Part shown: positions 30,349-62,874 of the stretch, piece by piece | Position numbering within the stretch: position 1 is the first letter of the stretch | Layout of the letters: the number at the start of each line of letters is the position of its first letter | From: Botryllus schlosseri | Taxonomy: Eukaryota | NCBI GenBank assembly: GCA_051294905.1 | Contig: CM119372.1 | Location: 11,844,001-11,908,000, forward strand | Reading direction: 5' to 3' | Length of the DNA stretch: 64,000 bases | Notes under the pieces: model-generated | Databases searched by the model: none | Told to the model about the DNA's origin: nothing | What the model saw: only the letters and a program-made list of their open reading frames with translations | Program-made: the position numbers and the translations under genes

Positions 30349-33300
30349 TCAGTCATCCTCGTCATCAGATATAATCATACGTTTTTTTCGAGTGACATGT
30401 CCAGGCTGGTTCTTTACCCCCCTAAAATGGAACACACAAGTATAAGAGGCTGCAACACATGAATGGATTCAACACAGTGTAGTGTCACTTACTGAGTATC
30501 CATATTAACTGAAAAGGACTTTGCATTTTCTTTGTCGGAGTCATCAGAACTGCTGTCCGAGTCATCGAGTATGGATTTCTTATGTGTTACAGAAACATCA
30601 CCCAATGGCGTATTGGAACTATCAACAGTATATATATATAAATAAAAATGATCTCGGATAGCAACAGTTACACACCAACCTCAACAATGAATCGTCTAAC
30701 GAGCCAGATGTCACAATATTATCATCCTTTTCTAATTGCGTCTGTCGATCGGTCGGATCCTCGTTTTCTCTGAAAACAAACCACTGGTATTGCCACGATT
30801 CAATAGCAATTGGTGTCTGTAATACCCTATGTTGTTCGAGGTATCCTCATCTTCCGCCGAAATTTCCATCAGCTCTGTGTTGTCAATTGGCAAGCTATCG
30901 TGAGCAGGCTTAACATTAACAGTATTGGAACTAAAAAAAGAAGTACGAATTAAATGAGCTGAGCGAGAATCCCGGTTTCATTGCTGATCCCAAAAATTGG
31001 CTTGACTTGAATTGTGACTTGACACGAGTCAAAATGTGCATTGACTCGAGATGACTCGTGACTCGAAGGTAGTGACTTGATCCCAACACTGGTACTCAAT
31101 AACAACCCAACCATTGGTCATAGCATGAAGCAAGAGATATCACAATGACAAAATAATTCGTGTCAATATCAAAGATCTCTAATAAGGACATCAGAAATCA
31201 GGTTTCTAACAACAGCAAGGGAATGAACGACTGAAATCAAGTGCTCAACTCACTCCTTATTCGTATCAGATTCAAGCGGCTTCACAATCTCCTCATCAGA
31301 ATTGGAACTTTCTGAGTCGTCCAGGAGCATTCTTTTACGGGACACAGCAGTGTTGTCAGAGTCGCTAAATAACGACTTATTCGTAAGTTAAATCGCACAA
31401 CAACGCGACAACCAGACTAGGTACAAACAACGCAAACCACCGTTGCTGCCAGTACTAGCACATTGTCAGCAGACATCTAATTATCATTGTCTGAATTTAA
31501 TTTTATCGGGAATTGAGTAATGTAAGGTCACAGGTTGTGTTCAAGCATGGGGTAGAGCAGGGGATATTTGTGCACATTTAATAGTGTATTTCAATTTGCC
31601 AGACCCAAAATCACAAAATTTGATTTAAAAGAGGCAAGAGTTCTTGAACGAGTCTTCCGTGACTTGCAATCGGACAGTAATTTCCTAGCACAGCTTGGGA
31701 ATCGGCGTTTGGAGATAGAGTCAACCGTCTTTAGTGGTGAATTTCAATTTTAGTCGAGAGAACAAGTTGCAATTTGAAATGACGCGGAGTCAGAGTCACC
31801 ATTTGGAGTCGTACCACACCTGTCGATCCAGCCCAGGGTTAGGAGTTAAACTAGGGGTTAGATTAGGGAAGTGCAAGAGACATCCGTGACTTCACCAATG
31901 TAGGCCATAGCTAACTATGCCACGAGTTCATTCACTTACGAAACGACAAAGCTGCAAGTGACATGAAAAGTCCCAATCGATACAATAGTATCTACTGATA
32001 GCAATGTAGCACATACCGTAACGTGGAATTCTGGTCTTTAACGCTTGTTGACCCAACATTTTCGTTCTCCAACAATTGCTTTTGCCGTTTACTATCACTT
32101 TCCTCGTCTCCACTGGAATAAAGTGATTCAAAACCGAATGACAACTAAATTCGCCAAATTTATTTAATCATGCACCGTCTTCACTAGAGCAGTATTAGCT
32201 GAATGTCGCTGTCGCATACAGCCTACGAAATAACTCACTCGTCATTCCCGGATGAATCTCCATCGTCCGCTATGACCCGTTTACGTTTTATTCTCAACGG
32301 TCCCACATCTTCTGGAACGTTTTGGGACGTTGATGGACGGTTTTCAATGGAAGTTTCTCTGCGAAGAGCATTCGCATGAAAAAAATAGCGCTCGAATTAA
32401 ATTGCGTGTCCAGAGAGATTGATTCAACAACCGCCGATGGACGATGACATGCCCAATTATTAAGAGCAATGTTATGAAGGATAGTGAATGACGTTTATAA
32501 AGATTCTAAATTTATAATAATAATTTACAAAGTTTTATCTTGCGAATTGTTTTGTTATTTCTTTGTAGTTCTGTTTCATGTACGCCGGAGTCATCGTTAT
32601 AGCTCCAATCGTAGTTCTTACAACGAATGCAACTGCATGAAGGTGACAGGCCAAATATGGATAGCTGGAGGAAAGGGCGGATACGCATTTATACAATACT
32701 GGCTTTTTAGTAGTTGCTTTCAGACACAAAACTAGATGCGGAAATAATACTAGATAAAGTTGATGATTTTGTTGCGAGTCGGCAACCACTATGAGAATCC
32801 AGTGTCAGCTTGCTAGAATTCGCAAAATTATTCAAGGCGTTGAATTAATTTGGTCAAATTAACCACAGATGGTGAAGAACCGCTGCCGTAATACATACAG
32901 CGGAATTCAGCTGGGAAACACCGCTCCCAATAATAATTTGGGTCGATTATGACAGACGTAAATATTCCTATGTCTGGTTGCGGTATTTTATCGACACCCT
33001 CGAGCAAAATCACTCACTCGTCATCATCAGGCAGGGTCGCAGCGGCGTTCGATAACGTATCGACATAGTCTTGAAGTTGCGGCACAGACAACGTCGGCGG
33101 TATCCTCCAGAACATTTCCTACAGAACAACCGGGAACCAGAAACGTTCAAAGCAGTCAACGTTAGTGATCAAGTATAGAGGACGCTATACAAGTAGCGAT
33201 TATCAAGTAATAAAATACATATTCATGGTCTTTTGCGTAAAAAACTGTAGTAAAGTAGAAGTAGTCTAAATTCGTAACCGCCCGAGTAAGTAGTGCAAGC

Positions 33301-36300
33301 AAGCATATCCTACTCGAGTACTCGGAAAGAAACAAAGACTTATTACAAAACTACTTCCTATTCTACAGAATCCACAGATTGTAGAAAGTAAGAAGTTTTG
33401 CCGAAAAACGTTCAAGCATAAGTGGAAGGATTGTAAAAACACGAAGTGACGCAAACCGACGATCTCTGCCGGAAACACGTCGCTGAAAATTCAGGAACGT
33501 TTTTGTTGCGTCGTGACACCTTATTAGCGAAACTTCAGTAAACCGCTTTTTACCTGGCCGGCGACCGGTTTTTGAAGGCCAACAAAAAACAGGAGCTTCT
33601 TGAAGGCAGCCGTTTGCATCGCGTTCTCCTGCTCTTCCGTCAGAGGCACCAAAGGCAGGGGTTCCACGTCTTAACATTTCAAATCGGCGCGAGAAACGTG
33701 TGCGGCGCTGAAAAATTCAGAGCGCGCCCCGCAAGGTTACCTTCGTCCGGTGCGTTCCTGTCTTCGATCGCTTGTTCGAGGTTGCTCTTAACCCAGTCGA
33801 TCTGCTCCGTCAGACCGTCGCGCACAGCTTTCCTGACGCAAGATCGGATGTCTGTAACGGAAAAACGGGAGCTGTCAGTACGGCACGGGGGTGGGCAGTA
33901 ACAGTGCGTGCCCGAGTAGTTGTGTTTAGAGTTACTTCTACTTTTACGGCGGAGATTATAAAGTTGGATTATCAGGTTCATCAGGATTTAACAACCCAAG
34001 ATTAACCAGCTGGCACCGGCGTGTTTTCCCGAAGAATTTTGCTTCACTTTACAAAACTGTAAAACACGACCGCGATGGGAAGCGAAACCAACAAGTGATA
34101 TGTCGTCGGATTCAGAATTGCAACGACTAACTAACTACGCCAGTGATTCCCAACCGCGGCTCCAAGCTACCTTTCTTGCGGCTCTGAATGATTTTTGAAT
34201 ATGCAACAAAATATTATAGACAGTTGTTTTTTATTGCTGTTAATAGTTATAGTCAACTTCTGTGTATGAATGCTACAATGGAGGCTATTAGGTATGTCTC
34301 AAGCCACTCAAGGTCACTTCTAACGGCGGGGATAGACAATTCTTGCAGACTAGCGTCAAACGCGTGGATGAATACCCGTCAGACAATCATATATCTTGAG
34401 TTCCGCTGGTCATGGACCTTTATAGGTCGTCACTGCGAAGAGTAAATTTCGACACAACTATACTGGCAAAAGTAAGTAAGAAATTAACAGCCCATAGTCA
34501 AGTAGAAATTGCCATATTACCAATATTACTCAGTGTATAATCCCCCTCAAACTTGTGCATCAAGTGCTGGAATGTATGAAGAGCCATCACATAACGACAC
34601 ACATAGCATGTTGTAGTAATGATATGTATTTTCAGTTTATTACAACGTATAGCGCTCGCCAATCTGTGTCTATCAATGCAAAAATAATCGACATAGAATC
34701 AATAAAAGTATATGTGCATGCTTTTGAATTAGCTGGATGGTGAGATCCAGAGGCAGGCAAGCTACCTTTAAATTTTCGTTATAAGTAGCTTGCTCGAGTG
34801 TTTTCACGCGGCTCCGTACTTACTCTGAAGTTGGAAATGCGGCTCCGGCATCCAAAAACGTTGGGAACCACTGAACTAAGCCATGAATCTAGACGAGCAA
34901 CCAAACATGCATTTAATCAAGAGGACAGCATAACCTTGTTGCAAAATGGACTAGTTTTGATTACTTCCTTAATAGAGTCTACAACATATTCCTAGTGCGA
35001 ATGAGAACGTGCTATTCACTGCGACAGAGATGTTTTTTTTAAAAACCAGCTGTGAGTGACCACTTTTGCTCAACTAATTCAGTCGACACTATCAAAGCAT
35101 GGTAGAGCGTGCTAGCTCCGTGGCGTAGTTGGTTAGGCATTGAAATTCTGAATCCAATTACTTGTTAGTTTCGCATCCCGTTGAGGTTGTGTTTTACAGT
35201 TTTGCAAAGTGAAGCAAAACTTTTTGGAAAAACCACAAAGGTAACGGCTTCACTGAACAGTCAGACAACCACCGAAACATGTACCCACCGTTGTAGAGCG
35301 ATATTTCTATCAGTATTCTATAGTCCGTTTCTTCGCTGTACAATGTGCACATTAATGATTACGCACTACTTACATTTCGCGATGATAATAATTCTACCTA
35401 TCTTTATCCAACAGCCTGCCGTTTCAGTCAACAAAAAGTTGTTTTAGAACAAGTTTGCATCATCTTTTCGAGTGAATTGGTCAAAGAACCCCTGGTATTC
35501 CGGTAAGCGAATAACTTTTTAACGATCATCAGTCATCAGTCGTTTTGCGTTAGCTGTAAAGATAAATCTGCTTCTAAAAGCAGCTTCGATATGTCTCGGC
35601 GGTAATTCTACTTCTACTCGAGCAGTAACGCCGATTACTTTCATCGCCGCTTCAGTACCGCGGTAGCATCTTGTCCCGACAAGGACGTCCAAATTATGGG
35701 CCGGTCCGTGGCCTCTACAACCAGCCCCTACCCTGATGTTCAAATGTGAACAGAAAAACGGTACCGACAAAATTTTACTTCGGCACGATAACCATTAGTC
35801 AGCCTGGTATACTTGGGGCCTAGATGGAATGCATGATGATTAATTACTGCACCTATGAGAGTCCAGGTTTCGTCATCATCGTCAGATTCCGATTCCGATC
35901 GCCGACGGTTAACACTGACACCTTCGTCAGACGAGTCCGATCCCCCTGCTAAATACAAGCAAACTCTTATTTTCAACAACAAAGAGAGAGCCTGCGATGT
36001 TTTACCATGGACAATTTCCTGGTTTCGTCCACCTTTACTGGTTCGTTTCCTCTTTTTGTGAAGTGATTTTCTAAATACGCCACACATTTTTTTTCGCACA
36101 AGATTGACGGACAACTCAATCTTGAAGCCATTGTTTACAAATGTCGTACCTGTCAACCACGAGACCGAGCTCGACAATTTTTTCGATGACCTTGTTCTTG
36201 GGACGCTTGACACTCATCATCGCCATGATACTGCCAACTGGATCTAGAAAGCCAAAAAACCTATGCGGTCAAGTAGTAAGTCTTAGGTATTAAAGATAAT

Positions 36301-39300
36301 TATCATTATTATTCGACAATTCGCAAAAATGTCTGTTTACATGCAAACAAGTTCACTTGCAACACTACCTGCCTGGTTGTAGATTTTGATAGCAGTGTCA
36401 TGGCAAAATTTTATGAGAATTCTAGAAGTTAGGGGATGGATAGACTCAAATCTGTTTCCAGTGACTGCTGGGAAAAGATAGCCAATCACTTGCGGCAATA
36501 TCATTGTTTCCATGTTATAAGTAGCTATGGACTATGGTTGATAGTATTACAACCCTGAGATGTACTATCGCAATTGCCCGCCTGGTACAGCACTAAATCT
36601 AATCGAGAAGTATCGCCAACTATGGTACATCGCAAATCACTAATTCATAAAAATAGCACCTTCCGAGTCTTTAAACTCCTCGAACAGCCTCCTGAGCTCC
36701 ATCTCTTCGTGCTCTCTCCAAACCGCGAGCTTAGTACTGTTGTGAGCGAATCCAAGGTCATCTCACAGGCAAAAATTCAAATTCAACACGATACCCTTTC
36801 TTTCGCTTCAACACAGTCGCGTTCTCCACGAGGCCGAGAATAACCAACTGTCTGACGATCTGGTGTCGCGTTCGCGTTTCGTCCGTGATCTTCGTCATAA
36901 TATTATCCACGACATCTCGAAAAAGAAAAGGGGGAATATGCAACTTACGATACATTTGCATGATCGAAGGTTTTCAGACTTGATTGGGATACGGTCGAGT
37001 ATATGAAAAATATTTACAAATTATAATAATATACAATACATTAGTCGTCGCTGAGGAATCAGAGTAGCTTATGTCCATTTTACGCACTTTGAGAATTCAG
37101 CTCTTGTAAAGTTTTCATTTTCTTTCTGCCCTTTGAAACAATGCAACTAACATAACTATGACCGAAAAAATGGAAATTTTACAAAACCATGATCAGCTCA
37201 TAATTTGAAAAATGGACGTCAAAACTTGAAAATAGACATAAGCTACTTCGATTGCACACAGAGCAGCAGTGATACATAAATCACATACAATATACCACGA
37301 AAAGCCAGTCAATAGATGCGGATTGCGGATATTTTAAAAGTCCTATCAAAATGCTCAAATTCAAGATAAACTGCACTGGTATTCCCGAGGAAAAGGACCT
37401 AGAGACACGAGATAGCAAATTTTGTTGAAGGCCATTAACTTCCGGCTATCAAATCTTATATGCAAACAACCACAAGCGGCTGTGTCACGCCTCACGGGCT
37501 TCCAATAACGTTACCGTGCGAGATTTTCAACATTGGATTGCATTTCGAATCACGTCGAGCCGTGTGACACAAAGTCGATTACGTTACACTCAAATTACAT
37601 AGCAACACAACGCCATATTTAGCATGAATCATTACCGGTTTCGGCGTCTTTAAATTCCAAATATAGCTGCTTCAATTCTTCCTGTTCCGCCTCACTCCAT
37701 TGCTTCTTCGCACTGAACAAATGTTAAAAACGTAGCAGAGAGCAGCACAAAACCGAAATGCAAACAGCCAGAGCATTCAAGGACCGAAATATTGCGTGTA
37801 CCTACTTCAATCCACACCAGCGCATGGGATTGGACCACACTGTTAAGCCGTAAAAAATCCCACTTGACACTGTACACTGCACCACAACACTTAACTACAA
37901 ATAATTCTGACTTCAAGAGAGTCTACTCGCATAAATCAACAAGGACGTACCCTGCATTCGATTTCGAATACGTCCCGTAGCCTTCAGCCAGCTCGTACAC
38001 GTGAGCTGCGTTCTGCTTCCAAAACAACAGCTCCACGACTAGCTTATCGTTGGTGGGCAGGATCTCGAAAAATCTACGAATCAGAAACTTGCCGAACACA
38101 GCCAGTTCCCGAAACGATGGATTTGTTCTGACGGCTTTGAAAATCTGCAAATACTACCTCAGACTCGAGTGAACAGTGCAGCGATCGCGACGAGTTTGTA
38201 CCTTTTGAAAGACGCGAAAAATCGACGCCTGAAACATCAGCCCGTACATCTTGATGTCGTAGCCGACACGGTGGAGCATCTTCGCGACGTAGTGATTGAT
38301 CTCTCGCGTGTTGGTTTCAAATTTGGCCAGGAGCACGGCGTAGGCTTGAATAACTTTCGCGGCGGCGAATCTATAAGTTACCAGTGAATTCGGTATTACA
38401 AATGGAAGAACTATTATCATTAGGAAAGACATGTATCAATATTTCATTCGAATTCAACAATGGATGTTTCACCGAACATGAACGTGAATTGTGATACAAG
38501 GCACTTGGGCAATTCGGCACTTCGTATGTAGTATTCACGTATTAGGGTTACGGCAGGAGTAGGTTAAGATTAGGGAAAGCCAAATTCACAAGTATACCAA
38601 TCCAGACGCAAACTGTAATCTACGACAATAGTGAGATGTATATTATCGTCCTTGAGTCATGATATACATACACATAACACATGACCTGCGCATTTGCCAT
38701 GAGTACATGATGTGCATATGCTGCTGGACAAGGAAGGTGCCGCAATAGCCCCGTAAGGCTTTCCAAATACTGCACCGCCACTCCATGCTATCACGGAGAT
38801 GCTGAGCGTCCAGCGGGAAGCCAGGGATACCACTTTTACTGATCGGGTCTTTGGTCTGACCCGGCCAGGGATCGAACCCGTGACCTACCGATCAAGAAGC
38901 CGGACGCTCCACCATTTCGCTATCTTGTCGGTCTACAGCCGCTGTTTTTATGCTAATTGATTCGAAAAATATCGTACTTCTTCAAGTAGTCGTTGAAATT
39001 ATATTCGACCTCCTTGGCGGATTCGCGGATCTCCTCTTCCTCTTCGTCATCAGCCTCCTCTTGCGCGATGCTGGAAGGGTCCTCATTTGAGATGTCTACA
39101 AATTGCAAAACATTAGACATCGTGAATCGTCGGCGCAACATGAATCCTGTACTTGACATATCGGCGACGCAATACTCCTTGAGCAAGATAACATCGTCTT
39201 CCCAGGTGGATTCTCTTGTCCCAAAAACGTCGATTTCCGGCCACAAGTGCCTGAAAATTGACAATGGGCTTGTTAAGTTTTCGAGCATTTCAGACTTGTC

Positions 39301-42300
39301 TCCACGACAGTTGAACTCGTGAAACATTCGAGTCAGCAAGTTGGAGGGCAAAGCTCCGTGTACGACATCGTAACCGTATATCGTCGCTGTGGAATCAAAG
39401 TAGCTCATGTCCATTTTTCAAATTTTGAGATTCCTTGGCCGTGGTTATGTTTGTCACATCGTTTCAAAGTTTACCAGGCACAAGGCATATTTAATGCGTT
39501 GGATGTGCTTGTTTATACCGCCATACACGACTGTAACGAGGCTGCATTTTATTAACAACTTCACACCTGTGTTTTGTCGTCGATACCGAGCGTTCTCGCT
39601 CACCTACAGCTATTCATTTCAGTCAAACCGCAATAACCACGCTCGCACAGACGCAAAGATGGAAACGACAATATAATTGCGATCGCATTTGCACCGATGG
39701 TGGATTAATATTCAGGAGCAGACAGCCAAAACTTTATTTGCGAAAATATCGTTGTAAAAATTGAGACGTTTAAACGTATATATATTTACTAAGATCAGCT
39801 TCTTGATTCATATTGAAATGAAATATTTTCGGCTGACACTCGTCAGGGGTAATCGTCAACAACTAGTAGAGAATTCAAAAGAACATCGTATATCAACAAT
39901 TGTATTACAAAAATATGACGTCACCAGCATGAAATGTCGATTACGAGAGTGTTCAATGTACTATTTTTAGATGATACACAAAGTCTTTTTGTTGGCACAG
40001 CCCCTGACGTGTGCCGGCCAAAAATATACAGGTTCATTTCAATATGAATATACTATTCAATTAACTTAGATTCGCATCACATAGTTTGAAATCACTGTCG
40101 CAGATTTAAAGAAACGCGCCAGAACAAACACAGTCATACACACACACACACACACACACAATCACGGTTCCGTGTTTCCGCACAGTCGGTCACTGCGCAT
40201 TCTCCGAATCGACCCCACCACAGCAAAAGATCTGACCTGGCCTGCCGTAACATGGCCACACATCCCGGCACCTCCCTCGCGTGCAACTTCCGCTGTATCT
40301 TCTTCAACGCGCGTTTCTGTTGCTCCTCCTCGCCCACGCCCGAAGTGGGGTCGAAAAGGTCCAAGGGAGAGCCTGCCTCGGGGAGGTCCTTGCTCTGAAG
40401 CGACACAAATTTCAAAATCGTTGCAAAAGAAATCGAAAATATCAGCGGTGCTCACCTGAGCCGAAGCCTTCGCCGAATCCTCGATTTCGTCCCAGAGAGA
40501 GCGTCTCTCTTCCTCGGTCAGCGAGCTTTCCGCGGCGCCCTGAGTGCCGTCGGGCTTTTTCCGCTTCTTCTTGATTTTGCGAGTCTTCTCCACGATTACC
40601 GCAGAGCCTCTGACAAAAAGGAAATTGTCAGCAGCGAAGAAATCAGTTCTCGCGAGTAGGGACGGGTTGGGTACTCAAATCTGAAGCGAGCATTAATTCT
40701 AATGATCCGATGAGTCGAGTAGTAAAAACAGATTGTTTTCGAGCAACGAAGTTATATGCTCTATGCCGCTAAGCGTGAATTTATCACCAGAAGTTATAGT
40801 TCCGATACTATTTTCCACAGTGTTAACCTTGAAAATATGATAGGCGGTATAATAGCACGGAAAACATGTATTACAAAGCTACAAATTACCTCTGCGGTGT
40901 ACAACGGGCGTTATACTGCTTGAGGTAGCATAAAAGGTACGTATTTCAACTTTCCATATCTTTCATACTTTTATGATGACGTCATAACGAGTGATCCTCG
41001 AATACACGACCCGAAGCCTGACACTTGATTCAGAATCGAATCGCACAGGCGGTCGATTCTGCCCGGCCGTACTCGGAGGCAGAGGCAGCCCGTAACAAAG
41101 AGCTTCTACTTTCTGGCTTACACTAGATTTCTCTACTTGTACTACTAACTCAAGCTGTCATACTTTTAGACTGCTTCCAGTTGCACTTTAGGCAAAACGA
41201 CTTCCCTTTTTACAATTTAGATTGTGAAAAGAAGATAGTTGTTTTGCGGTGCGATTTTTGATCACTTTTGCGAAAGATTTTGCTACTACTTGCACTCGGG
41301 CGGTCATGTTTTTAGACTACTTCCACTTCTACAATCAATAGAACGGAGTAAAGAGTAGTTTCGGATAGGTTCGCGCCAGCGTTACGTACGAAACTGTCGC
41401 AACGACTGGGCGAAACATCCCCGGGACATATTTTCAAAAATTGCGCTTATTCATGGTGTCATTCGTCATTTAGCGTTAGTCGAGAAAATCAATGAGGCAT
41501 TTTCGAGAGCAGTCCGTGTCCTGTTAACTGAGAATAGTAGCTCTCGACCAAATCAACTTTACAAACTACTTATTGGAGCGCTTTTCAGACCTTTATTTTC
41601 TGCTTCCACTTAAAGACATGTTTTGGAAATAACTGCTTCTACTTGTAAACGAATAGAAATTTACTCGAGCAACAATCCTGACTATTTTGACCTCCACCAA
41701 TCCTGCTTACTTGCATTGCTTCTCGAAGAGTCTCGTAAACAAATGTGTCGTCTCAATCAGATCAGCGAGGTATCCGTGCGACAGTTTCGACTCGTCGTAC
41801 TTTTGCAGCAGCGTCGCAAACACTTCCCGGTACTCGTGAGTGTAGAACAAGTTGTCTGTGATGATTCGGACCGTGAAAACGCGTAAAGGGGGCTCGGCAA
41901 AGGACCGACGTACTCAGCAAGACTTTGGCGCTCTCTTTGAACTGCTCGTTTTCGGACGACAGCATCGAGTGGACGGTGAGGAGGAATTCTTTGTAACATT
42001 TCAGGGCACAGTGCATTCTGAAATCGAGAAGTGATTAACACGGCTTCGAGGCGGAAAAATGAGTTTTGCATGTTAGCACGAAGATAATACAGAGATTGGC
42101 ACGGAAAACAACGGTCAAAATAAAGACTGCGCTCATTTTCACTGGGCCTACTCAAGATTACAGCCATAGATCAGTGGTGTCCAATATTTTCATGAATGTG
42201 ACCTGACTTCCGACTTGAAAATGTCCCAAGAACCCATTACAAATTTAATTAGCTGCATACAAAAAAAGACACCTCCTTCGCCTAGACTTACTCACGTGGC

Positions 42301-45300
42301 CTACCTGAGAAGCTGATTACTAAAATACGATACTATCAAGAGGTCAGCACTAGGGCTCTTCAAAAATGACTTTTTTTCTCAAATCGTACTGGCTACTTGA
42401 TAAAATTGTTAGGTTACCTAATTTAAGCCTACACACAAAATTTGGTTGAATTCCAGCCAGTAACCGCTTTGCTACAGGAGAAGAGAGTTTCTATATATTA
42501 TATAAAAATTATTATTAAAAAATTTGAAAATTTTCTGTTCACCCCATGAAAGTGTTAGGCTGTCTATAGAAACGATGCTCACCAAATTTGGTTCAATTCC
42601 AACCAGTGGAAGCGGAGTTATTGCCGTCGAAAAATTGGGATTTGAATAAAATAGTATTTACTACGGTGACCGATTCTTTGTTCATTTATTATAGTTCTGC
42701 TCACCGTAAACTATTTTATTCAAATCAAAATTATTCGACGGCAATAACTCCGCTTCCACTGGTTGGAATTGAACCAAATTTGGTGAGGATCGTTCCTATA
42801 GACAGCCCAACACTTTCATGGGGTGAACAGAAAATTTTCGAATTTTTTATTATTTATTTTTATATAATAAATAGAAACTTTCTTCTCCTGTAGCAAAGCG
42901 GTTACTGGCTGGAATTGAACCAAATTTTGTGTGTAGGCTTAAATTAGGCAACCTAACAATTTTATCAATTAGCCAGTACGATTTGAGAAAAAAAAGTCAT
43001 TTTTGAAGAGCCCTAGTCAGCACCTTAGTGACTCCCAGAAAAAACCAAACAACCCACAGGTTGACAACCCAGCCGTAGAATCTCCTACTCTCCCATAAAG
43101 AGTCCTTTAACACATAATTTTCAGTAATCAAAAAACCATTGCGGAAAATCATAACATATCATAAAATAATTTAGCATCGAGTCCGTAAATTGGTACAAAG
43201 TCGCACCTCGCGTCCTGTCAATCATTGTGCAGCTGAAATCCAGGGTTGTAACCAAGTAACAAAGCTCCGAGTCACGAGTCATTCTCACTTTTACGGTTTT
43301 GACTCGAGTCAAGTCGAGTCATCTTCAATTCACCACCGAGTCAAGTCCGAGTCCAAGTCATCGAGGTTCGAGTCCGAGTCATGGTATTATGACTCGAGTC
43401 CGAGTCCAAGTCATTGTGCTGACTGCTCAGTTTCCAGTTAAAGTCTTGTTAAAGCCACTCTTATAACTCTGTTTGGTGATATCGAAATGTTCGCATTTAT
43501 AATATACTTATTTTCCTCACTTTTAACAGTTTCTGGTTGCATTTTCAAGTACCAGTACCAACAGACGTAATCCCAATAGAGAGGTTACTTTACTGTTCTT
43601 TGAAAATACAATGAAATGTCGGTCTCGGCCGGCTGAATATCGAGTCATATCACTTAGTTCGAGTCATGCGCAATGACTCGAATCATTACAACCCTGCTGA
43701 AATTCAGGTCAGGACCCAGGGGCGTAGCCAGGGGGGATTTCGGGGGTCGAAACCCCCTCCTTTAGAAACGAGAAAACCCCTCCTTTAACGCGAAACCTCG
43801 CCCTTTTTAAATGACCACTCTGACGCTAATACTCGGTTGCAATTCAATAAGTTGTATTATCAGTATTGCGCGCGGCCAATTAACGAAAGGCGCGATCAAT
43901 TAACGAAAGGCGTGTTGCTAATTATCGAGATTCGTCCGTGCGCATTGCACTGCACAATGTAACGCGACACGATCTCCCGCTGAGATGATTGCGAAATCAG
44001 GTCATTCATTGTAGCGCATTCGGCAATCATTACTGGCCTGATTTACCGCGTCTCCAACAAGCCTAATTCCGCTGGCTTGAATAATCACATCTGCAATAGG
44101 CCCTGTGCGCATGATATCGTCACTGGCCTTCACAATCACATCTGCATTGGCTTGGTGTGCACGATATCTTCGCTGGCCTACACAATCGCATCTGCAATAG
44201 GCCTAGTACTAAAGATATCGCTAGCCTAACTACCGCGTCTTGGGCCTACCATGCTTTGGCTCCTATTTCTCGATGGCTTGGATAAAATGCTATTAAGTAT
44301 ATGCTGATTAGCGATTGTGATTAAAGAGTGACATCTCGTAACTGAATGACATCGAATGTCCGCAATCATGTTCGACGCGTGCGTACATGCGTAATTGATT
44401 TCCACTAGTCTTCAGTTATAGTCCAGTAGGCTTGAGTTATAAAAGAGGTAAGGTTTGAGCCACCTGAAATCGGCGTCATTATAGCACATATTCCATAAAA
44501 ACTCGTACATTTTTACTTGCGCAAATCGTTGCCGAGGCTACGTAAGACCCAAGACGCAGTGATGAGCAGGCGTATTTAATTGTTGGACGCTTTGATAAAC
44601 GCGCGAATTTAATTGTTCGTCGCGTTAATAAAGCGCGTATTCAAATGTTCGACGCGTGCGTATTTCATTGTTCACGACAGATCAGGGAGTCGCTAATTAA
44701 CAGCACTACCCGACTCGTCGACAAGCTTATCATACGCCTATAATCGCCAACACGGGAATCTTGTATAATCGTTATTTACGCATCACATGTACTTAACCCT
44801 AATGAATCGATGCTACGTTACTAAATTCGAAAAAAATCGAACCCCCCCTTTTATTTCAACCCCCCCCCCTTATTTTTTGGCTGGCTACGCGCCTGTCAGG
44901 ACCAATGCAAGGGGGGATATTCTAGCGCGACAACAGCGAGGCAGTAACAGTACCTTCTCCCCCAAGTCACACATTCTTGCTTGTCGGTAACCATCAGTTC
45001 CAAGCAGTTCGTCATGCTGACGTCAATGAAATGCAGAGTCGCGATCTGAATCGTCTCCGACACGCGATCCACGTTGAATCGGTATTTCCTGTAGCACAAA
45101 ACCAACTCGAGCGACTCGCTAAGTAAGACGTGACGCGGAAAAATTTGAAAACCGGCACCTGTTGAATTCCATGAGGAAGCTCATGATGGTGAAGTAGTAA
45201 GTCTCGTCGTGGTCGTCGGACCTCTCACGGGACACCTTGTCCCTGATGCTGAACATGAAATGATTGTAGCCGCTCTCCAGCATCTTGACGCAGAAGTCCT

Positions 45301-48300
45301 TCATGATCTGGCAAACGTCGCGCGAAGCCTTCCTGAATATCGCGTCTCCGTTACGACGGGGCCTCAAACGTAGTATTCAGACAGGAGATAGGATGATACG
45401 ATGACAGGCCGTGACAAAACTAATTGGAGAAGGCAAATTTTACTCAAATTTCTTCCCCGTCAAGTTATATTACTTCTACTTCGAGTGCCGACGATGACTG
45501 CATCGACCACCTCTGTCTTATAGGCTCCTCATTGCTATCCTAGCTGCATGCACAATAGGGCTGTTCAAAAATAACCTTTTTTCCTGAATCTTGCTTGGCT
45601 ACATGATTAAATCGTTAGCTTGCCTTGAAAACGACGCGCACCAAATTTGAACTCGTTCCAACCAATATTCGCGAATTTCGTACAGTTTGAAAATTTTGAA
45701 TTTGCCCAAAAATGCAAAAAAAATCCGTCTAAATTTTCTGCCAACCCCATGAAATTGTTGCGCTGTCTTCAAAAACGATGCAAAACAAATTTGACTCAAT
45801 TCTAAGCCGTAGAAATGGAGTTATGTCTGTTTTTCTTTGATAATTCTGGGATTATCCTTGATCGGTGGATCATCCCAGAATTATCATCGAAAAACTTGAA
45901 TAACTCCGCTTCTACAGCTTGGAATTGAGTCAAATTTGTTTTGCATGGTTTTTGAATTTCATGGGGTTGGAAGGAAATTTTGAAAAAAAAAATTGCATTT
46001 TTGGGCAAATTCAAAATTTTCAAACGGTACGAAACCTGCGAATATTGGTTGGAATGAATTGAAATTTGGCATGCGTCGTTTTTCAAGGCAACCTCACGAT
46101 TCAATCACGTAGCCAGCAAGATTCAGGAAAAAAGGTTATTTTTGGAACAGCCCTAATGCGCAATGGCCTACAAAATTCTACTGGAGCGGGAGTAGATCAT
46201 GATTAAAGTCGCAAATCCGCACGCATAAAAAATCTGTGCAACTGCCGAGCCCCGCCTTAAACCCCCGACCTTGTCGCATTCCCCTCGCTCAGCGGTCTTC
46301 TGTTTTTGGCTTTCCTCAACTTTGACTTTCCATCGTCGAAACTGATCGAGTCGCATTTGTGCAGGGATTTGTGAATGACCAAGTCATTGGCGTCGGCCAA
46401 AGCCGGCATTCCCCGAGCCACATACGTCCCTCCGAACCTCGAATGCCTGAAAAGATAGAGTGGTGTTAGTCTCAATCTCACCCAGAGTTGGATCAATTAC
46501 ATTATTTCAGTTCAATTACAATTACAATTACAATTACTTTCATGCATGTTTCAATTACTTTACAATTACAATTACTCGATGCTAAAAATATCAAATTACA
46601 ATTACAATTGCAATTACTCCTTGCATGCTTCAATTACATTACAATTACAATTGCTGCTGTTGAACATGTAATTGAATAATCATAAATTCAACCGTGCTCC
46701 TTGACAACCGTAGCGTCGTATTTAACAATTCAAGTCTAGTTCAGATTGTGTAGTAATAAATGCGTTTATGTGCGTACATAGTATGATATGTAAGATGTCA
46801 TTGTGACGTAACATAAGCGTGTTTTGTATGCTCGGTAATTATGGCTCACGTAATTGGAAAAGTAAAATGTTATTTACCTAATTTCCTATGGGTTAGGATT
46901 AAGGATAGGGTGCAGTATGTCGTTGAAAAAGTATTATAATATATGCACGTGTTGGATTTGCGTATATAGTATATAATTAAAGAAATAATATTATTTTTAT
47001 CGAGGGACGTAGGAATTAGGATGAGGAGTAAAAACGAAACCGTGCTTTGTCAGATAAGACGTTATATAATATCCAGTGGTCTGGTTAGTTAGCCAGACGA
47101 AGTAACGATGCAGTATCGTGATCTGAAATCGTATTGTAGATTGCCAACCCACGGATAGATGCGCAAGATGTGAGTCACGGATGAATGTACCGACAAACGT
47201 ACTGCAGAGCCGGCTAAAAGCAGCAAACTTTGTAGTCCTAGAGCTGGCGATCCATGCGTCCAAATTTGATGCATCTGGTCTTTATCGTAAGCTATTGATG
47301 TACTAATTCCGATAATACAAAATAAAATCTCGTCAGGGCAATGCAACTGCTCCAAAATAGCCGTTTAAGGCCGACTGTTCTGAAAAGTGAGAGCGCTGCA
47401 CCAGCATGACCACAACAATTACTAATTACGCCCAGCGATTGTTCAGAACAATGCCGATTCCCAGACTTTCACGACTATTTCGGGATGGCACCATTGCCTG
47501 GAAATATACTTTTATTGCGGAATCAGTGCGACACTAGCTTTCGATTAGGACCATACATATCAAATTTCGACGCTTGGATCGCCAGCTATGGGACTATCAA
47601 TTCTGCTGCTTTTAGCCGGCTCAGCAGTTCGCTTCTCGGCGTATTCAATCGTGAGTCACGTGTTGCGAATCCATCCGTTGGTTAGTGATCTAAAATTGTA
47701 TACAATGGCAGCCGAGGCCAGCATAGCGGTGAAAATAAAAAAAAACTTCGCCCGCAGGGGCGCAGTCAAGGGCTTCCGCGAATGAATCCACCAAATTCCT
47801 TGTCGACATTAGAGAATGCATTATAAGTCAATTATTTTATGTTGTGCTTGTCAGGTCTCAATAGCAATTAATGTAATTGAAATTGAGCAAAATTTTTGTC
47901 AAATTACAATAACAATTACACAAAATAAAAATGCTTCAATTACAATTACATTACAATTACATTGAAAAATGTAATTAATTACATTCAATTACAATTGCAA
48001 ATTACAATTGATCCAACTCTGATCTCACCGCAGTAAAATGAAGCTTACAGCTTCCACCAACCTACCAGAGTAGGTCACCTGCACCCTGCACCTGATATTA
48101 AACCAACTAGGAATGTGTCACCAACAAGGTTTAATTCACTTCATTGATATCAGTATCGATGGGTCCGGTAAGACACCAAGCAATAGACAAAAAACCAAAG
48201 GAGTGCAACCTGTTCGACAAGCAAACCCATTAACTTCAGAATTGGTAACCTATATCTACAAAATTCGTTATCAGACAACATAAAGTTATAGCAAATACAA

Positions 48301-50909
48301 TAAAGTATAAAAATTTCAGATTATTAAATGAACTTTGTCAGAATATTCTTGCGCAAAATCATCATGTAGGCATATTTTCGTGTTTCATGTCCACATTTCT
48401 AAGCCCAATGGAGCTTTGCTCAAACCTACCAGACTAAACCAAATTAGAAACCAATTCCGCGGGTCGCCGATACTATTCAGCATTGGCACTTATATATTTC
48501 ACGAAAACTTCGAAAATGTGTCACATCACAAACTCATCCTATTCATCAATAGCCGTACAGCAAACCAATATCTGGGCTCAAAAGGCATCCAATGTGACTA
48601 TACAACCAGCAGTAAAAATGAGTTAGTCACCAGTTGTCCGCATAGCGGAGTGCATAAAAATTTCAGTGCCCGAATATCGCATGATCAACACCAACACCAA
48701 TTCAAATCATATGCCTGATATACTAGAAACACAAACCTGGAACTCAAATGGAGTCTATTCGCTTTATTCCTTTCACATTCCCTCGCCTTGATAGCTTCCA
48801 GCTCCTTGTCAATTCGCGGCGCTGGCTGAGAAGCATTGAATTTCGCGAGTTCCGAAGGATTCTAGACACATTCATCAACATACAGAAAACGACGCAGTCA
48901 CTACCTGCACAGCACAAACCTCATCCTTGAGAAGGAGCGCTATAATTTCGGCGACATGTAGACACCACCGTTGCTCCGTCGTAGACGAAGCCAGGTACAA
49001 CAGCATGGAGTCGACACCTGCATTGTGCATTGCGCTGCAAGGAATTTAGAAATAGATTATCGCCAACAGCACGAACAAATGGTACGTTACATGATCAATT
49101 TGTCTTGTAAGGACACATAATCGGATTGGTGTTCATCTTTCGGCGAAGAAATGTGAAGGATATTTCGGCAGAGCACCAAAATCCTTTCCACAGTCAGCGT
49201 GTCGTCCGGCAATCGATCTTCCCAATCCTTGTTGAAGATATCGTACACTTTTTGTGCGAGGACTTTCCAAATTTCCACATTCGAAAACTCCTACGCAAAG
49301 AAGGAAAACATTAGCGCATGCACATATCTAACCGTTAATCATCAAGTACCTGTTTATACGACACATTTAAAGCGAGGATATCCAAGTAGTTGTGGTACTG
49401 GTCGGCTTCTTTAGGGACTTTATTGCCAAAACAGAGTAATGCAGGCTGAGTGAGATTCACCAGGAGTCTACATGAAAGAAATACGATTTTAATCAACATC
49501 GATAGGCATCAGAAGGGATTGTTCGATGCAGCCCATGTACATTAGGGTTGTCCAAAATTTGGAAAATCTCAAAAATGCTGGATATCAATATCTCATTCTA
49601 TAGATTATGGATAAAAAACAACAATGAGTCTGAAATACACTCACAGTAAAGTCGTTAAGATTTGTCGCAAAGCGTTTGAAAGTAGCTACCGTCGAGTGGG
49701 CGTGCCAGCGACCATAGAACGGCAACAAGCTAGTAATCACGAAATCACGGCTCTCGATTGGCTAATCGGCTATGCTGCAATGATCACGACGGTAGTGGCT
49801 TGATGATCAGTTGTTAAAGGAGTCTGCTAAGAACGGCGGTGATTCTGTAAGCGCATTGTATGCTGGTTGGCAGATAATGATTTATTTAATATTTAATATT
49901 TCTCTGCGGTTGTGCTTTCCCGCGGCCAAAACAGACATGTGGGCTACTGCGGTTTCCTTCACAGTAAGCCAGTCATGCTTCAAGTTTATGTGAAGCAGCT
50001 GTTGTTTGTTCATAAACATGTATTTAGTAACTCAATATGTCTTGAATTAATCTTAAATCATAATCTGCCAACCGGCCTACAATGCGTTTACAGAATCACC
50101 GCCGTTAGCAGAGTCCTTTAACAACTAATCAGCAAGCCAGGACCGTCGTGAATCGCGATCATAGAAGTATAGCCGATTAGCCAATCGAGAGCCGTGATTT
50201 CGTGTTTACTAGTCTTGTTGCGGTTCCATGGTCGCTGACACGCCTACTCGTCGGTAGCTACTTTCATACGCATTGCGACAAATCTTAACGACTTTCCTGT
50301 GAGCTTATTCCAGGCTCATTGCTGTTTCTTATCAATAATCTATAGAATGAGACATTGATACCCATCATCTTTGAGATTTTCCAAATTTCGGACAATCCTA
50401 ATGTACATCATGACATCATATAGCTCATCTTCGAGACCAATTAATCCAATGCAGGTGTTAAGAAAATGTGTGTCCTCAAATGTGTTCTTAGCATTTAGAC
50501 GTGTAGCTCAAGCCATTAGTGTAACTCGATAATGGCTGGTAGAGTGATGCCACATAGGCACATATATCATGGTAAAGTTGGGATACAAGAATATTGAAGA
50601 GCAAACACGCACCTTAAAACAGCGCTACAGAGTGCTTCGTCGTTATAGTAATATTGCAAAATTGGGAGAAGGTCGTTTTTAACAACACGCACCGCGCCAA
50701 GTTGCATGCGGATATCATGATTGTCTTCTTGATGGAGGAATTTAATCAAGCACTTCACCGTATCTTCAAATAAACATTTAGAGTGTTATTTTCACTGAGT
50801 AGAATCAGAAGAGTCGCAGGCATTTACCCAAGCAATCCGGATCCTTGAAATACCGCTCTTCTTCCAAAGAGCCGAGAGCGTTACAAGTGGCAAGCAGATC
50901 GCTATCCAT
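30349..50909 (-). CDS. TIMELESS: Timeless (Tim2/Timeout-type TIMELESS, replication fork protection complex), multi-exon, apparently complete
   Basis: Exon 50909-50828 MDSDLLATCNALGSLEEERYFKDPDCL; 50763-50613 TVKCLIKFL...NDLLPIL; 49467-49350 LLVNLTQPALLCFG; ~49290-49090 VERILVLCRNILHI; ~46446-46268 RHSRFGGTY; ~45362-45159 HDETYY; ~42017 MHCALKCYKE; ~38030 VVELLFWK; PARP-binding-type region PLVPLTEEQENAM...FWRIP (~33670-33100); last exon ends RKKRMIISDDEDD*, stop at 30349-30351. Confidence 0.93.
34141..34873. mobile_element. hAT (Charlie-like) MITE in Timeless intron
   Basis: CAGTGATTCCCAAC...GTTGGGAACCACTG; TSD aactacgc/aactaagc; cggctcc subterminal motifs. Confidence 0.85.
38640..38932 (-). 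mobile_element. tRNA-derived SINE
   Basis: On the minus strand: Pol III box A TAGCGAAATGG (38922-38912) and box B GGTTCGATCCC (38878-38868), followed by a non-tRNA body gggtcagaccaaagac...gtggtatccctggcttcccgctggacgctcagca. 3' boundary approximate. Confidence 0.75.
40138..40159. repeat. (CA)n microsatellite
   Basis: About 11 CA units in a Timeless intron. Confidence 0.9.
42351..43015. mobile_element. Fold-back hAT-type MITE (near-complete palindrome), probably nested in an older MITE (~42172-43072)
   Basis: TAGGGCTCTTCAAAAATGAC...GTCATTTTTGAAGAGCCCTA; arms ~320 bp with a ~30-nt spacer; perfect TSD GTCAGCAC. Confidence 0.92.
43241..43696. mobile_element. hAT-type MITE, GACTCGAGTC family (inverted relative to 26003-26532)
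   Basis: CAGGGTTGTAA...TTACAACCCTG; TSD ctgaaatc/ctgaaatt. Confidence 0.87.
43717..44895. mobile_element. Non-autonomous hAT element with internal ~50-bp tandem repeats
   Basis: CAGGGGCGTAGCCAG...CTGGCTACGCGCCTG; perfect TSD TCAGGACC; three ~50-bp units (caatcacatctgcaataggcc...gatatc) at ~44068-44220. Confidence 0.9.
45556..46155. mobile_element. Fold-back hAT-type MITE
   Basis: TAGGGCTGTTC...GAACAGCCCTA; arms ~295 bp meeting near 45860; TSD atgcacaa/atgcgcaa. Confidence 0.9.
46483..48021. mobile_element. Non-autonomous hAT element with CAATTA subterminal arrays
   Basis: CAGAGTTGGATCAATT...AATTGATCCAACTCTG; perfect TSD ATCTCACC; (caatta)n at both ends; internal diverged inverted repeat ~47120-47290 versus ~47535-47700. 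Confidence 0.9.
49543..50400. mobile_element. Fold-back hAT-type MITE
   Basis: TAGGGTTGTCCAAAATTTGGAAAATCTC...GAGATTTTCCAAATTTCGGACAATCCTA; arms ~350 bp; perfect TSD ATGTACAT. Confidence 0.92.
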
Positions 50910-51963
50910 ATTTTGCTAATTAAATCACCATATTAGACCTAAGAGAAGGTATGAAAAATGGAGAGGGGTTATTCGCATGAAGTTCGAACAGGCACATACA
51001 TTCCATCGAAGAAACATATTAGTATGTTTGGTGCAATCAACACAATTCGCAGAGAGCAAGTTAGCACAATAGTGCCTGTATATAGCGAACAGGGGCCGGT
51101 AACAAAACAAGCAATATGTATACACATATATGTGTAGCTCACAAGTCTGTAAGCAAGAAAAACCCGCATTCCAACTGCATGGACATACAAAAGGCATATT
51201 CTAAACCAGATGGACTTCATCGAGGTGTTGTAAATTTTTACAACAATCCGCAAGTTGAAAATATATAAGCAGAAAATTTACCATTAAACAAATTCAGGAC
51301 CGTTGAGTGAGGTGGGTTGGACTTCGCATTACTGGGAGTACCCATTTCAATACCCAGCCACTTATTGTGCTATAACATTTGGAAACTTACAGCCAAAATT
51401 TGCAATTCGATTTTTCACCCATACTTCATTCAACAATACATTCACATACTGACATGGATAATCTAGGGTGCAAAATAGCTTGATTGCAAATTTTAACGGG
51501 ATAAATCATGGGAATACTACTCAACTCAATCCAACAGCAATGCGACCACACCAAACAACCAAGTTACACTTGCTACCTGAAGCAGGGACCTAAAATCATG
51601 TGTTTGTTTGAAAGACACATTTACCAACATAATATGTTCATAATTGTATGTTGCAGTTGAGTGGCATAATGACTGACAATCGTAGGCTACCAACGTAAGC
51701 ATGACATCAGGTCATACACAAAACAGCTCCAAATTTTGACTTGCTGAACAAAGCTTACCATGTCATAACTGTGATAACATTATTTATAAACACATCGAGG
51801 TAGCATCTCGAAATAACACCGTATCACACTGGAATATAACCTTCCCTAACAGCAAGAAATCCTAGAAAATCCAGCATTTTACTCATATCTGCAAGGTCAA
51901 AGATGTTCAGTTTGGCAAGTCAGTTGAACCTTCTGAAAATTCAACCAAAAAGAAGCGATCAAT

Positions 51964-53283
<1,320 letters not shown>

Positions 53284-54029
53284 CTATGCAGAGAGAGAGA
53301 CAATTTTATCAAATACAATTGCGAGTCATCCAGTTATCACCATTGATGGAGTACAATAGCGTCTTGCAAAGTCTCGCGTCATGAATAAATCGATAACAGG
53401 TCGCACAGCGGTAAGCAGTAACCCTATATTATCATAGATACATGAACATTTCATCTTTCAGTAATCTTATAACTGTCTTTCAGTAATAGAAAAGGTCTCA
53501 ATCAAAAGCTACGGTACTTTTGCACTGATTTTGAAAATATAAATTAAAATCTGCTCCGGGCACTGGAAACCCGCAAATAAAAACCGATAAATACAGATTG
53601 TAGCACACAAGCCTACGCATATCATCATAGAATTTACTATCAACGGGTATTTCTTTGCACGCAACAGACCACTCTACCAATACCAAACATATCGTTCCAT
53701 TCGGCTCTTAGCTGTTCATTAATTTCATTTATGAAATTTTCACTGTTACAATCACTGTAAGCATTTTGCGGAAAGCGGGGGTTCCCAGGAAAAATCATGC
53801 CTGACAGGACTATAGCTGTAATAATGGCCGAGATAACATTCAAGGATTCATATGAATAACTGATTGAACTTCAACTGATAATGTAAACAAGTAACATGAT
53901 AAGATTACCCCAGATTCACATACTACTATGTCATATGGAATACTACGGTAGTCTACTAGTACTAGGAATGTTGGATTCTTGTTTTATACCTGTTGGCTTT
54001 CGCCAAATGACAAAACATGGCAAATCTAC

Positions 54030-55057
54030 AGAGAGAGTGAGAGAGAGAGAGTCTTTATTTTCATCGAACCAAAATACATAACAAACGGCAGTGATGGTGG
54101 TACAGAAAATATGCGTGCACAGTATTCGGTATTAGATAGGAATGATCGATAAGACCGTGAAGGTCATCTAGTCTGATCACACCAGCATCAAACAGGTACA
54201 CTTGACTCTGAACAGTCTTGGCTGTAAAAAATGTTTAGCTAAGAAAGGAAAATAGAAAAAAAATTAACCAATGGTAGCAAATGATCAATGAAGCAATGTC
54301 TGGGCGAGGTAGGGCAACAGTGTTAGTGTAACGACAAGAGGTGATCAAGTAGGGCTTTTTTGAATCTATTATAAGGCAATTCACGGACATGTGGTGGTAA
54401 TGCATTCCAGATGATAGGTCCCGAGTAGTCGATTGATCTCTTAGTTAGGTTGCTATTGGGTGGGGGTAAGTAGATGTTTCCTTTAGACGAGGATCTCGTG
54501 TAATGGAAATGGACATGTTTAGCAGGTATGAAAAAGTCATCAAACACAGGAGGCAGACTATTGGAAAAATATTTGTGAACAACTTTTGATACTTCGAAGC
54601 GATATAGTTCGTCAACTCGCAAAATTCGATGCTTACGGTAGTAAGGCGATAAATTGGTACGTAAAGGTACAGATGAGATCAGCCGTATCGCACGGTTTTG
54701 CAGGGTTCGAATTCTGCACAAAAATGTTGTGCATGCATTTCCCCATACTACGATTCCATATTGCAGATGAGAGTGGAAAAGAGAGAAGTAGATGGTTCGT
54801 AGTACTGATCTGGAAACCAAAGATTGGAGACGGGTCATTATTCCCACACACCGAGCTAGTTTTGATATTGTGCATTCAATATGCTGCTTCCAAGACAATT
54901 TGGAATCAATGGTGACGCCGAGATATTTTGCTGAGTCACATATTGAGATTTGTTTATGATTGATGTTCACAGTGAAATTATGACTGGCATTATTTAAAAC
55001 GAGCATCTCGGTCTTATCTGCATTCCAACTTAGTTTGTTTGCTTGAAGCCATCTCGA
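54030..55057 (-). mobile_element. 5'-truncated non-LTR retrotransposon (L2/CR1 group) fragment
   Basis: ORF 54323-55006 is the C-terminal part of an RT ORF (AKYLGVTIDSKLSWKQHI, YFSLFHSHLQYGIVVWG, LQNRAIRLI, HYTRS, WNALP); 3' end AATAAA followed by a (CT)n tail at ~54030-54059. Confidence 0.9.
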
Positions 55058-55622
55058 ATATGGAATATATGATGGAATATATGATTGTTATAGAGGTTGC
55101 AGTCGCCAGTCAGTAATCACGGGTATAAAATTAGAAGGATAACGGTATATTTTATCTCTGATTGCTAACATCAAAGACAGTCAATAACTACCATATACTT
55201 TATACAAACATCGATACTCAATATGTAGGCCTACATACTTTACCTGCAGATATACGGTCGTAGGCCTACCACACTAATGCCACACGGTATAAGCTTACTA
55301 ACCTACTGGAATCTCGGTACGTTTTGCTTGATATAACAGGTGAGCACCGATGATTCTTCAAGTTAAAGTAATTTAATAAAAATAATAAAAAAATAAAACA
55401 TAGTGTGAGCACTATAAAGAGCATACAGGACACCGATTCCATACAGGCTTACTAGATCCATACCTTCTCGATCACCGATGATAAATATTATTCCATAAGT
55501 AAATAAACTGCGAGAAATAACCTGACCGACTTGCTTGAAATGAAAGAAAACCGACCGACCTTTTACAACCTAAGAGTTGTTAACCTAGTGTACCCTCTAA
55601 TAATATGGTGTCTGTTTTCCAC

Positions 55623-55631
55623 TTTCCCGCC
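55623..55631. promoter_or_regulatory. Candidate E2F site (TTTCCCGCC) in putative RBBP4/Timeless promoter
   Basis: Consensus match inside a small CpG-rich, non-repeat patch (~55490-55680) upstream of two replication/chromatin genes; a possible minus-strand donor (cag|gttatt) lies near 55522. Single short motif only. Confidence 0.35.
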
Positions 55632-55881
55632 ATGGCCCGCGAATGCGACCGAGCAGCAGCGAGCAAAGCAACAACCAACAAAAAGGCAAGTGAGCCATAA
55701 ATAGAGCACTCGAGCATATTATTATGATGTGTGATCGATATTTTGATAGAAGACGAAGACAGTGGCATGTTATGAATATATATATTATTTATGATCAGTT
55801 CACCACGCACTAAGGCAAGTTTTTGCAAATTTTTACAGCTTCCGGGACCTTCCTAAATACTCATAATGAATGTAGTGTGGT

Positions 55882-61557: not shown

Positions 61558-62874
61558 AAATACATATTCTCTGCAAATTTATATTTTCTGCAAATTATAT
61601 TTTCTCAGATAATTTCCATGTGATGGCGCTAGAAAGTTATCATAAGTAGTTCAACAATTCTGCAATAATTGAAACACCATGTGTAAACTACATGTAAACT
61701 AGTCGCGCGCCATAAAGGCTTCTTCTGATCTGTAATGCAGGCGCAATAGAAGTTTTCAACAGTTTTAAAATTGTGTTGTTGGGACACATAGAAAACAAGA
61801 CGCCGTGAATAATCAGAATCGGATTCACAAAAAATAAAAGGTCGATTCCACATTCGTTATTTCCACAGTAGATCGGGAGATCGCCTAGTCTAGTTATTTA
61901 TACACTATAATCGATAGATGAATCTAATAGTTATATTCGTGAATCCTTGGCTATGCAGGTCTGAAACAGTTATCTTAAATTAAAAGCATTCACAATGATA
62001 TAAGTAGCCTAGGCTTATTACAGATAAAATTATACATTAAATTTACAACTAGGCTATGCTGTACAGGACAAGGATAATGTTTCTATATGCAAGGGTTACG
62101 GTCACCGTAGAAGTGAGAAATTGAAGATGATGTGCTAACATTAGAGAACGTGTTCAAGCTTAGCAGATTCTCCAGTTCTATTGAATAACTAGAAAGCGCT
62201 GGCAATAAGTAACTTATGGTCGGCATGTGCGTCATTCACTTTCATTACTAGTCGTTTTATGTTATTCGTTCTTTCTTTTCACCCAGTGTGCGATGCACAT
62301 TGCTTATGCCCGGGTGGGTGTCTGATTTCAAAGACTTCTCCAATGTTTCGACACCTTGCCATTGTATCGCGGTCTAGTGATGCCATGAAATTATGAAATT
62401 ATATTAATAAACTGATACTGATACTTCCCAAAACGAATTTTCGGATCGTAAATGAAATTCCTACAGTTTTCAACTCGCGATGAAGGCTACATACAGAACC
62501 GACCGACTTGGATAAGTTGTTTAAGTTCTATTTTGCTCTCTATATGTTGATTTGTTGACCAGCAGCACGCGACCAAGCTTTTTTTCTCACGTGACCGATT
62601 TATGATAAGCTCTGTCTCTTCTTTTATGATTCGAAACTCTCGTACACGTCACAAATGGGAGACGACCGGTGGCCGCGATGCCGGGCGCTTGACATTGGCA
62701 AACGAGATAATATAAGATAAGTCATTCATGGAAAGGTTATGGAGTTTCAAATATTTCATCGTGACATGGTCAGGAGTTTATGGTACGATCGTAATTGGAA
62801 AACTATGATATATATGGACGACTTCAAGAAATAATTAATTTATTGCTTTTTAACAGATAGCACATAATATATTA

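Follow-up and report, generated by a model that had tools for sequence, protein, structure and literature searches.

RBBP4 and Timeless, two neighbouring genes of the styelid ascidian Botryllus schlosseri, are likely to form a two-gene operon of the Ciona type, with RBBP4 in front and Timeless behind it. They lie in a stretch of 64,000 nucleotides (GenBank assembly GCA_051294905.1, contig CM119372.1, positions 11,844,001 to 11,908,000 of the forward strand), hereafter the window, whose own coordinates are used throughout. A first-pass annotation, made from the sequence alone, had suggested either such an operon or a single non-coding first exon spliced alternatively to the two genes. The operon branch is now supported: RBBP4 RNA comes to within 26 nt of the Timeless splice acceptor, where a contig of Timeless begins, and the species has a spliced leader (SL). 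This kind of system is well known; the RBBP4–Timeless pair itself appears to be lineage-specific.

Results

Layout of the RBBP4–Timeless locus

Both genes are on the minus strand, and 1,054 bp separate the RBBP4 stop from the Timeless ATG. Their proteins both work at replicating chromatin. RNA was surveyed over 50420-56050 in four of 24 listed runs, taken from four studies: X1 and X15 provided contigs, X23 bulk reads and X21 single-cell reads (about 6% of the reads were examined in X23 and 3% in X21). That X1 and X15 consist of RNA is a guess, although a spliced Timeless joint occurs in each; the records listed are filtered. In the order of transcription, the features of the pair are:

53266..53305, minus strand: acceptor (AG at 53285-53284) and 18-nt 5′ untranslated region (UTR) of RBBP4; an X1 contig ends at 53285
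51964..53265, minus strand: RBBP4/7 (CAF1 p48) coding sequence (CDS), 433 aa, intronless, ATG at 53265 and stop ending at 51964; Pfam CAF1C_H4-bd and WD40
50965..51963, minus strand: RBBP4 3′ UTR of about 1 kb, from X1 contigs, even X23 depth and a sense pile in X21
50939..50964, minus strand: Timeless acceptor (polypyrimidine tract and AG, from the pyrimidine count) and probable RBBP4 mRNA end, hence the cistron boundary; covered by no listed contig
50828..50938, minus strand: first exon of Timeless, with a 29-nt 5′ UTR and the first codons; presumed leader acceptor position at 50938, from the start of an X1 contig
50920..50931, minus strand: three-codon upstream open reading frame in the Timeless 5′ UTR, out of frame, read from the sequence
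30349..50938, minus strand: Timeless (TIMELESS/timeout family) gene with many introns, ATG at 50909 and stop ending at 30349; 24 colinear tblastn pieces

The 433-aa frame was assigned to RBBP4/7 because of its Pfam matches. It has no intron: a single alignment block spans the whole protein and a 1,406-nt contig crosses it unspliced. Its closest full-length named relative is the RBBP4-like protein of Styela clava (XP_039268179.1, 83%), with which it groups at a Shimodaira–Hasegawa-like approximate likelihood ratio (SH-aLRT) of 100. This tree of 51 rows was built by a quick method from 50 hand-picked stored RBBP4 relatives, none labelled Ciona; a search of 50% representatives added nothing further. 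In the same Ciona-free tree a long stem (0.34) lies under the styelid RBBP4 proteins relative to most animal RBBP4/7, which might be a consequence of the gene's relocation discussed below. Timeless has a Pfam TIMELESS match on one exon. The three-codon frame of its 5′ UTR begins 7 nt past the acceptor and could damp translation. Within the 1,054-bp gap, only two ATG frames exceed 40 codons (59 and 84 codons).

RBBP4 RNA reaches to within 26 nt of the start of Timeless RNA

The gap is the 3′ UTR of RBBP4. Contigs of X1 span 50965-51802 and 51880-53285, i.e. RBBP4 plus the gap, and the mean depth of X23 over the RBBP4 CDS (5.1) is close to that over the gap (6.6). In X21, about 570 reads pile up on one strand at 50796-51359, versus about 21 over 51360-53239, with a peak depth of 240 at 50984-51171. 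We infer from this pattern that the X21 library is 3′-primed, and we read the pile as a poly(A) end because no A-rich run lies there. Internal oligo(dT) priming was considered as its source and rejected: A-rich 10-mers occur in the gap only near 51610 and 51415. The end of RBBP4 RNA is thus placed at 50965 or lower.

On the other side, the first letter of a spliced Timeless contig of X1 is 50938, the first base past the acceptor. The intron 50827-50764 is removed in this contig and is spliced out in X15 as well. In X1 the transcript ends of RBBP4 and Timeless are therefore at most 26 nt apart (50965 versus 50938), and the X21 pile agrees. The depths of X1 contigs (59-96 for RBBP4, 7.9 for Timeless) were not used as expression levels. 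Altogether, the two genes share a strand and their transcript ends are less than 100 bp apart, which is the operational definition of an operon. Two typical features accompany it: no AATAAA or ATTAAA within 40 nt of the upstream 3′ end, and a single-exon 5′-most gene, which is common and not required.

Spliced leader and the region upstream of RBBP4

Fifty-two X23 reads at 54971 carry a leader identical to the published "Chordata 1" SL consensus (PMC3795323, Table 1), so the species trans-splices. Three further features lie upstream of the RBBP4 acceptor:

53286..55592, minus strand: probable outron with low-level sense transcription; X21 depth of 0.8-4.5, on a single strand, over 53240-53803
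53992..55119, no strand assigned: high-copy repeat inside the outron; depth up to thousands on both strands, in contigs and reads
55593..55680, minus strand: candidate promoter region with an E2F-like site at 55623-55630, placed immediately beyond the low-depth RNA piece that lies furthest upstream among those listed

The low sense-strand RNA above the RBBP4 acceptor fits an outron; contigs there cover 53615-54063 (X1), 53616-53987 (X15) and 55433-55592 (X1). The last of these, of low depth, bears 23 extra letters past 55592, perhaps the sign of a 5′ end or of a difference between alleles. An imperfect direct duplication (55927-56578, period of about 330-370 bp) lies a little above the candidate promoter.

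The repeat, which we take to be LINE-like (a long interspersed nuclear element), has a 254-codon open frame on the minus strand (54323-55087) without Pfam match. The leader reads at 54971 are on the plus strand, inside this repeat, and joined to an AG opposite its long open frame. They represent trans-spliced antisense RNA of the repeat family, from the local copy or another one.

Sequence signals compared with chance

We then compared each sequence signal with its frequency in the window. Both acceptors are where the first-pass annotation had put them: the Timeless AG at 50940-50939, 29 nt before the ATG, and the RBBP4 AG at 53285-53284, 18 nt before it. Both had been called strong, which is true for Timeless (17 pyrimidines out of 20), whereas RBBP4 has a moderate tract only (14 out of 20). 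Among the 3250 YAG sites of the window, 11 score as well as the Timeless acceptor and 175 as well as that of RBBP4.

The minus strand of the gap indeed contains neither AATAAA nor ATTAAA, the closest poly(A)-signal variant being AATAAC at 50973. As an argument this absence does not hold: both signals are missing from 435 of 1260 windows of 1024 nt, and likewise from 37% of 2000 shuffles of the gap. The patch at 55500-55680, described as CpG-rich, has a CpG observed-to-expected ratio of 1.11 versus 1.04 for the window, and 30% of windows of the same size match its CpG count. An E2F-like site is present in it, as stated, at 55623-55630, but the window contains 7 copies of the pattern versus 7.3 expected. 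We discarded the CpG patch, the E2F motif and the missing AATAAA as evidence for a promoter or an operon, their frequencies being at chance level. That the gap lacks a CpG-rich patch of its own is correct (ratio of 0.55, in the lowest 0.2% of windows). Ciona has been reported to lack CpG islands (PMC4691747).

Points against the operon and competing explanations

Several observations weigh against the operon. No leader letters were seen on Timeless or RBBP4 among the records listed; the X1 contig of RBBP4, ending at 53285 at the acceptor, carries one extra letter that does not fit the genome. The Timeless contig begins two letters short of the AG that a leader-bearing contig should include. 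Because it lacks this shared AG, its exact start may reflect fading coverage. The Timeless 5′ end comes from one contig, in a run that is only guessed to be RNA, and neither X23 nor X21 has any depth over the Timeless 5′ exons in the bin 50608-50795 (0 in both, exon 2 included). The end of RBBP4 can be set no more exactly than at 50965 or a lower position, and 50939-50964 is spanned by none of the listed reads or contigs. Contigs on the list account in full for the depths of the bin 50796-50983. Finally, the RNA records do not locate the transcription start site.

The alternative that best survives, though we consider it unlikely, is a pair of separate units placed end to end. Timeless would then have its own promoter inside the RBBP4 CDS or 3′ UTR, an outron overlapping the RBBP4 message and trans-splicing at 50938; a hybrid with both promoters belongs here too. 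Such an arrangement agrees with the lack of a bridging molecule among the records listed, with the monocistronic, trans-spliced state of Timeless in Ciona, and with the average length of Ciona outrons, which at 438 bp (PMC4691747) is short enough for a 1-kb UTR. In X1 and X15, moreover, contigs of the gap are deeper than those of the CDS. However, X23 depth is about even over both, and 3′ bias accounts for the contig depths. No site where many molecules begin is listed in the gap. The meeting of the RBBP4 end with the Timeless acceptor is the pattern seen in operons, and would be a matter of chance between separate units.

Less probable still is the second branch of the original suggestion, a non-coding first exon, ending for example at a donor at 55463 or lying beyond 56050, cis-spliced to either RBBP4 or Timeless, so that RBBP4 would be nested in the first intron of Timeless. 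The donor at 55463 is good (AAG|GTATGG). Both the leader and an exon ending there finish in AAG, so the extra letter on the RBBP4 contig fits them alike. The RNA stretch surveyed ends at 56050, and short contigs may have been filtered. On the other hand, none of the four runs lists a splice joint to 53283 or 50938 within 50420-56050. Depth at 55496-55683, over the candidate exon, is 0 in both raw-read runs, where by a rough estimate about 7-9 X23 reads would be expected at the RBBP4 depth. The sole X1 contig there (depth of 2.9 versus 58.8) crosses the 55463 donor unspliced. This branch thus loses its support.

The case named beforehand as the one that would overturn an operon, a Timeless start with its own non-coding exon in the gap below a separate RBBP4 poly(A) site, is very improbable: the predicted GTAAGT donor does exist, at 51390, and an exon ending in T there could account for a contig starting exactly at 50938, but an X1 contig runs unbroken across it, no joint from it is listed, and X21 depth stays at or below 0.84 over 51360-52111, leaving no 3′ end above the donor and the main 3′ pile inside the supposed intron.

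The gene pair in Styela and Ciona

Adjacency in other tunicates had been proposed as a check. It seems to hold in Styela clava, where timeless (XP_039268178.1) and the RBBP4-like protein (XP_039268179.1) bear consecutive RefSeq numbers, which usually track gene order. It fails in Ciona, where the two genes are on different chromosomes: TIMELESS is KY21.Chr1.165 (KH.C1.487) and RBBP4 is KY21.Chr8.358 (KH.C8.192) according to supplement tables. Their listed neighbours are Lasp1 (Chr1.164), Chr1.166, at 0 transcripts per million in 16 of 16 samples, and PBDC1 (Chr8.357). For Ciona Timeless, the SLOPPR files list leader reads and place the next same-strand gene 3,469 bp upstream; neither Timeless nor RBBP4 appears in the strict operon file, at the one cut-off covered (1 bp). 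Ciona RBBP4 spans 4,726 bp versus a CDS of about 1.3 kb, which suggests that it has introns. The supplement rows were drawn from PMC7986045, PMC10951915 and PMC12705688; none of four gene ids is present in the PMC11155486 supplement.

The window holds a further gene relevant to this comparison:

~23600-30108, plus strand: LASP/nebulette-like gene with nebulin repeats and SH3, in tail-to-tail orientation to Timeless, with about 240 bp between the stops

Since this gene adjoins Timeless here and Lasp1 does so in Ciona, the Lasp–Timeless neighbourhood is old and RBBP4 is likely the newcomer. A local inversion is also implied, because Lasp1 and Timeless share a strand in Ciona and are on opposite strands here.

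Other features of the window

Two introns of Timeless contain long inverted-repeat elements resembling miniature inverted-repeat transposable elements, at 49535-50408 (arms of 195 nt at 89%, with nested arms) and 47133-47696 (arms of 179 nt at 78%). An Rfam search over 49000-57000 gave three matches, all under the gathering score. At 20875-22379 on the plus strand, a 412-codon frame without Pfam match, next to a frame-shifted neighbour, is probably a decayed transposon gene. The start of another plus-strand gene lies at 62854-64000, where a zinc-finger-like exon comes after a frame of 307 codons; the pieces tried gave no Pfam match. We presume this gene to be Fezf-like.

Discussion

We propose the following scheme for the locus. 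A single promoter lying above the acceptor of RBBP4, at a probable position near 55.6 kb, would produce a pre-mRNA made of an outron, the single-exon RBBP4 with its 1-kb 3′ UTR, and Timeless. Joining of the leader at 53283 would yield the RBBP4 mRNA; joining at 50938, the 5′ end read from one contig, would yield that of Timeless. The poly(A) end of RBBP4 would fall at the Timeless AG or at most 26 nt from it, without AATAAA, its exact base being predicted from Ciona. Formation of this 3′ end may be linked to the Timeless acceptor. With the branch point and AG of Timeless located in the 3′ end of RBBP4, each pre-mRNA may yield the RBBP4 or the Timeless message and not both, as hypothesized for Ciona (PMC1488885).

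As to its origin, the intronless RBBP4 probably moved ahead of Timeless, perhaps by retroposition, and thereby created the operon; of this we are less sure than of the operon itself. Retroposition of RBBP4 into the outron of Timeless would be the simplest history. A fuller version falls somewhat short of an even chance: a copy of RBBP4 mRNA would have been retroposed into the Timeless outron of a styelid or stolidobranch ancestor, would have taken over the promoter, and would have been kept in B. schlosseri and Styela clava. The copy would have landed before a Timeless gene that was monocistronic and already trans-spliced, and the old Timeless outron would have become the RBBP4 3′ UTR. The gene has two marks of a retrogene, being intronless and in a position that is new relative to Ciona, the one outgroup. 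With up to three mismatches allowed, nothing like the leader occurs in the window, and no A-rich run closes the RBBP4 3′ UTR. Decay of such remnants is to be expected after an old event.

Instead of being newly formed here, the pair may have been broken up in the Ciona lineage. Likewise, RBBP4 may have lost its introns in place and then moved at the DNA level. Three points count against the retroposition account as well: Ciona is the sole outgroup, the introns of Ciona RBBP4 are deduced from its span, and the Styela adjacency is deduced from accession numbers and not from coordinates.

As an operon, the pair would be ordinary, since about a fifth of Ciona genes sit in such units. Its value is that of a before/after case: Timeless stands alone and is trans-spliced in Ciona, with RBBP4 elsewhere, and in styelids an intronless RBBP4 is directly ahead of it. 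This suggests a route by which tunicate operons could originate, namely retrocopies landing in outrons. Of the 1,310 candidate operons of Ciona, 60% start with a single-exon gene for a reason unclear to the authors (PMC2760879); the proposed route, if true and general, would explain this figure. It would also make for a datable operon birth, linking a replication-fork protein with a histone chaperone. Functional coupling of the two is not implied, because Ciona operon partners are reported as not tightly co-expressed (PMC1488885). The case points to abutting-cistron operons outside Ciona. Among the matches listed, there was no report of the RBBP4–Timeless pair or of stolidobranch operons, nor a genome-wide operon study in that group, subscription papers and bioRxiv supplements lying outside this coverage.

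The closest known counterparts are the operons of Ciona without intercistronic sequence. There, all 19 mapped operons have abutting cistrons, the G of the acceptor usually receiving the poly(A) and the 3′ ends varying by 2-6 nt, once by 67 nt; 16 of 18 lack AATAAA/ATTAAA, and the authors suggest that a single transcript may give only one of the two mRNAs (PMC1488885). The Botryllus pair shares with them the common strand, an upstream 3′ end at or next to the acceptor, the absence of AATAAA/ATTAAA, the single-exon first gene and a leader in the species. It differs in its leader ("Chordata 1", PMC3795323, versus the 16-nt leader of Ciona), in a first gene that is itself preceded by an acceptor and by an outron about 2.3 kb long, and in its members, which form no operon in Ciona.

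SL1-type operons of Caenorhabditis also carry little intercistronic sequence, or none, and monocistronic genes receive the same leader as downstream ones; AATAAA is present in the three characterised nematode cases (PMC1488885), however, and is missing from the B. schlosseri pair. Within Botryllus, the fuhc sec/tm pair likewise consists of close same-strand styelid genes for which an operon was considered; with a spacing of 227 bp and no leader on the second gene, its authors prefer read-through (PMC3691228). Unlike in that pair, no more than 26 nt separate the end of the RBBP4 message from a strong acceptor.

Retroposed genes can borrow the promoter of a neighbour. RBBP4 resembles such retrogenes in its intronless CDS, found at a site where the outgroup lacks RBBP4. 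It departs from them in that the copy sits ahead of a trans-splice acceptor, the result being an operon and not a nested gene.

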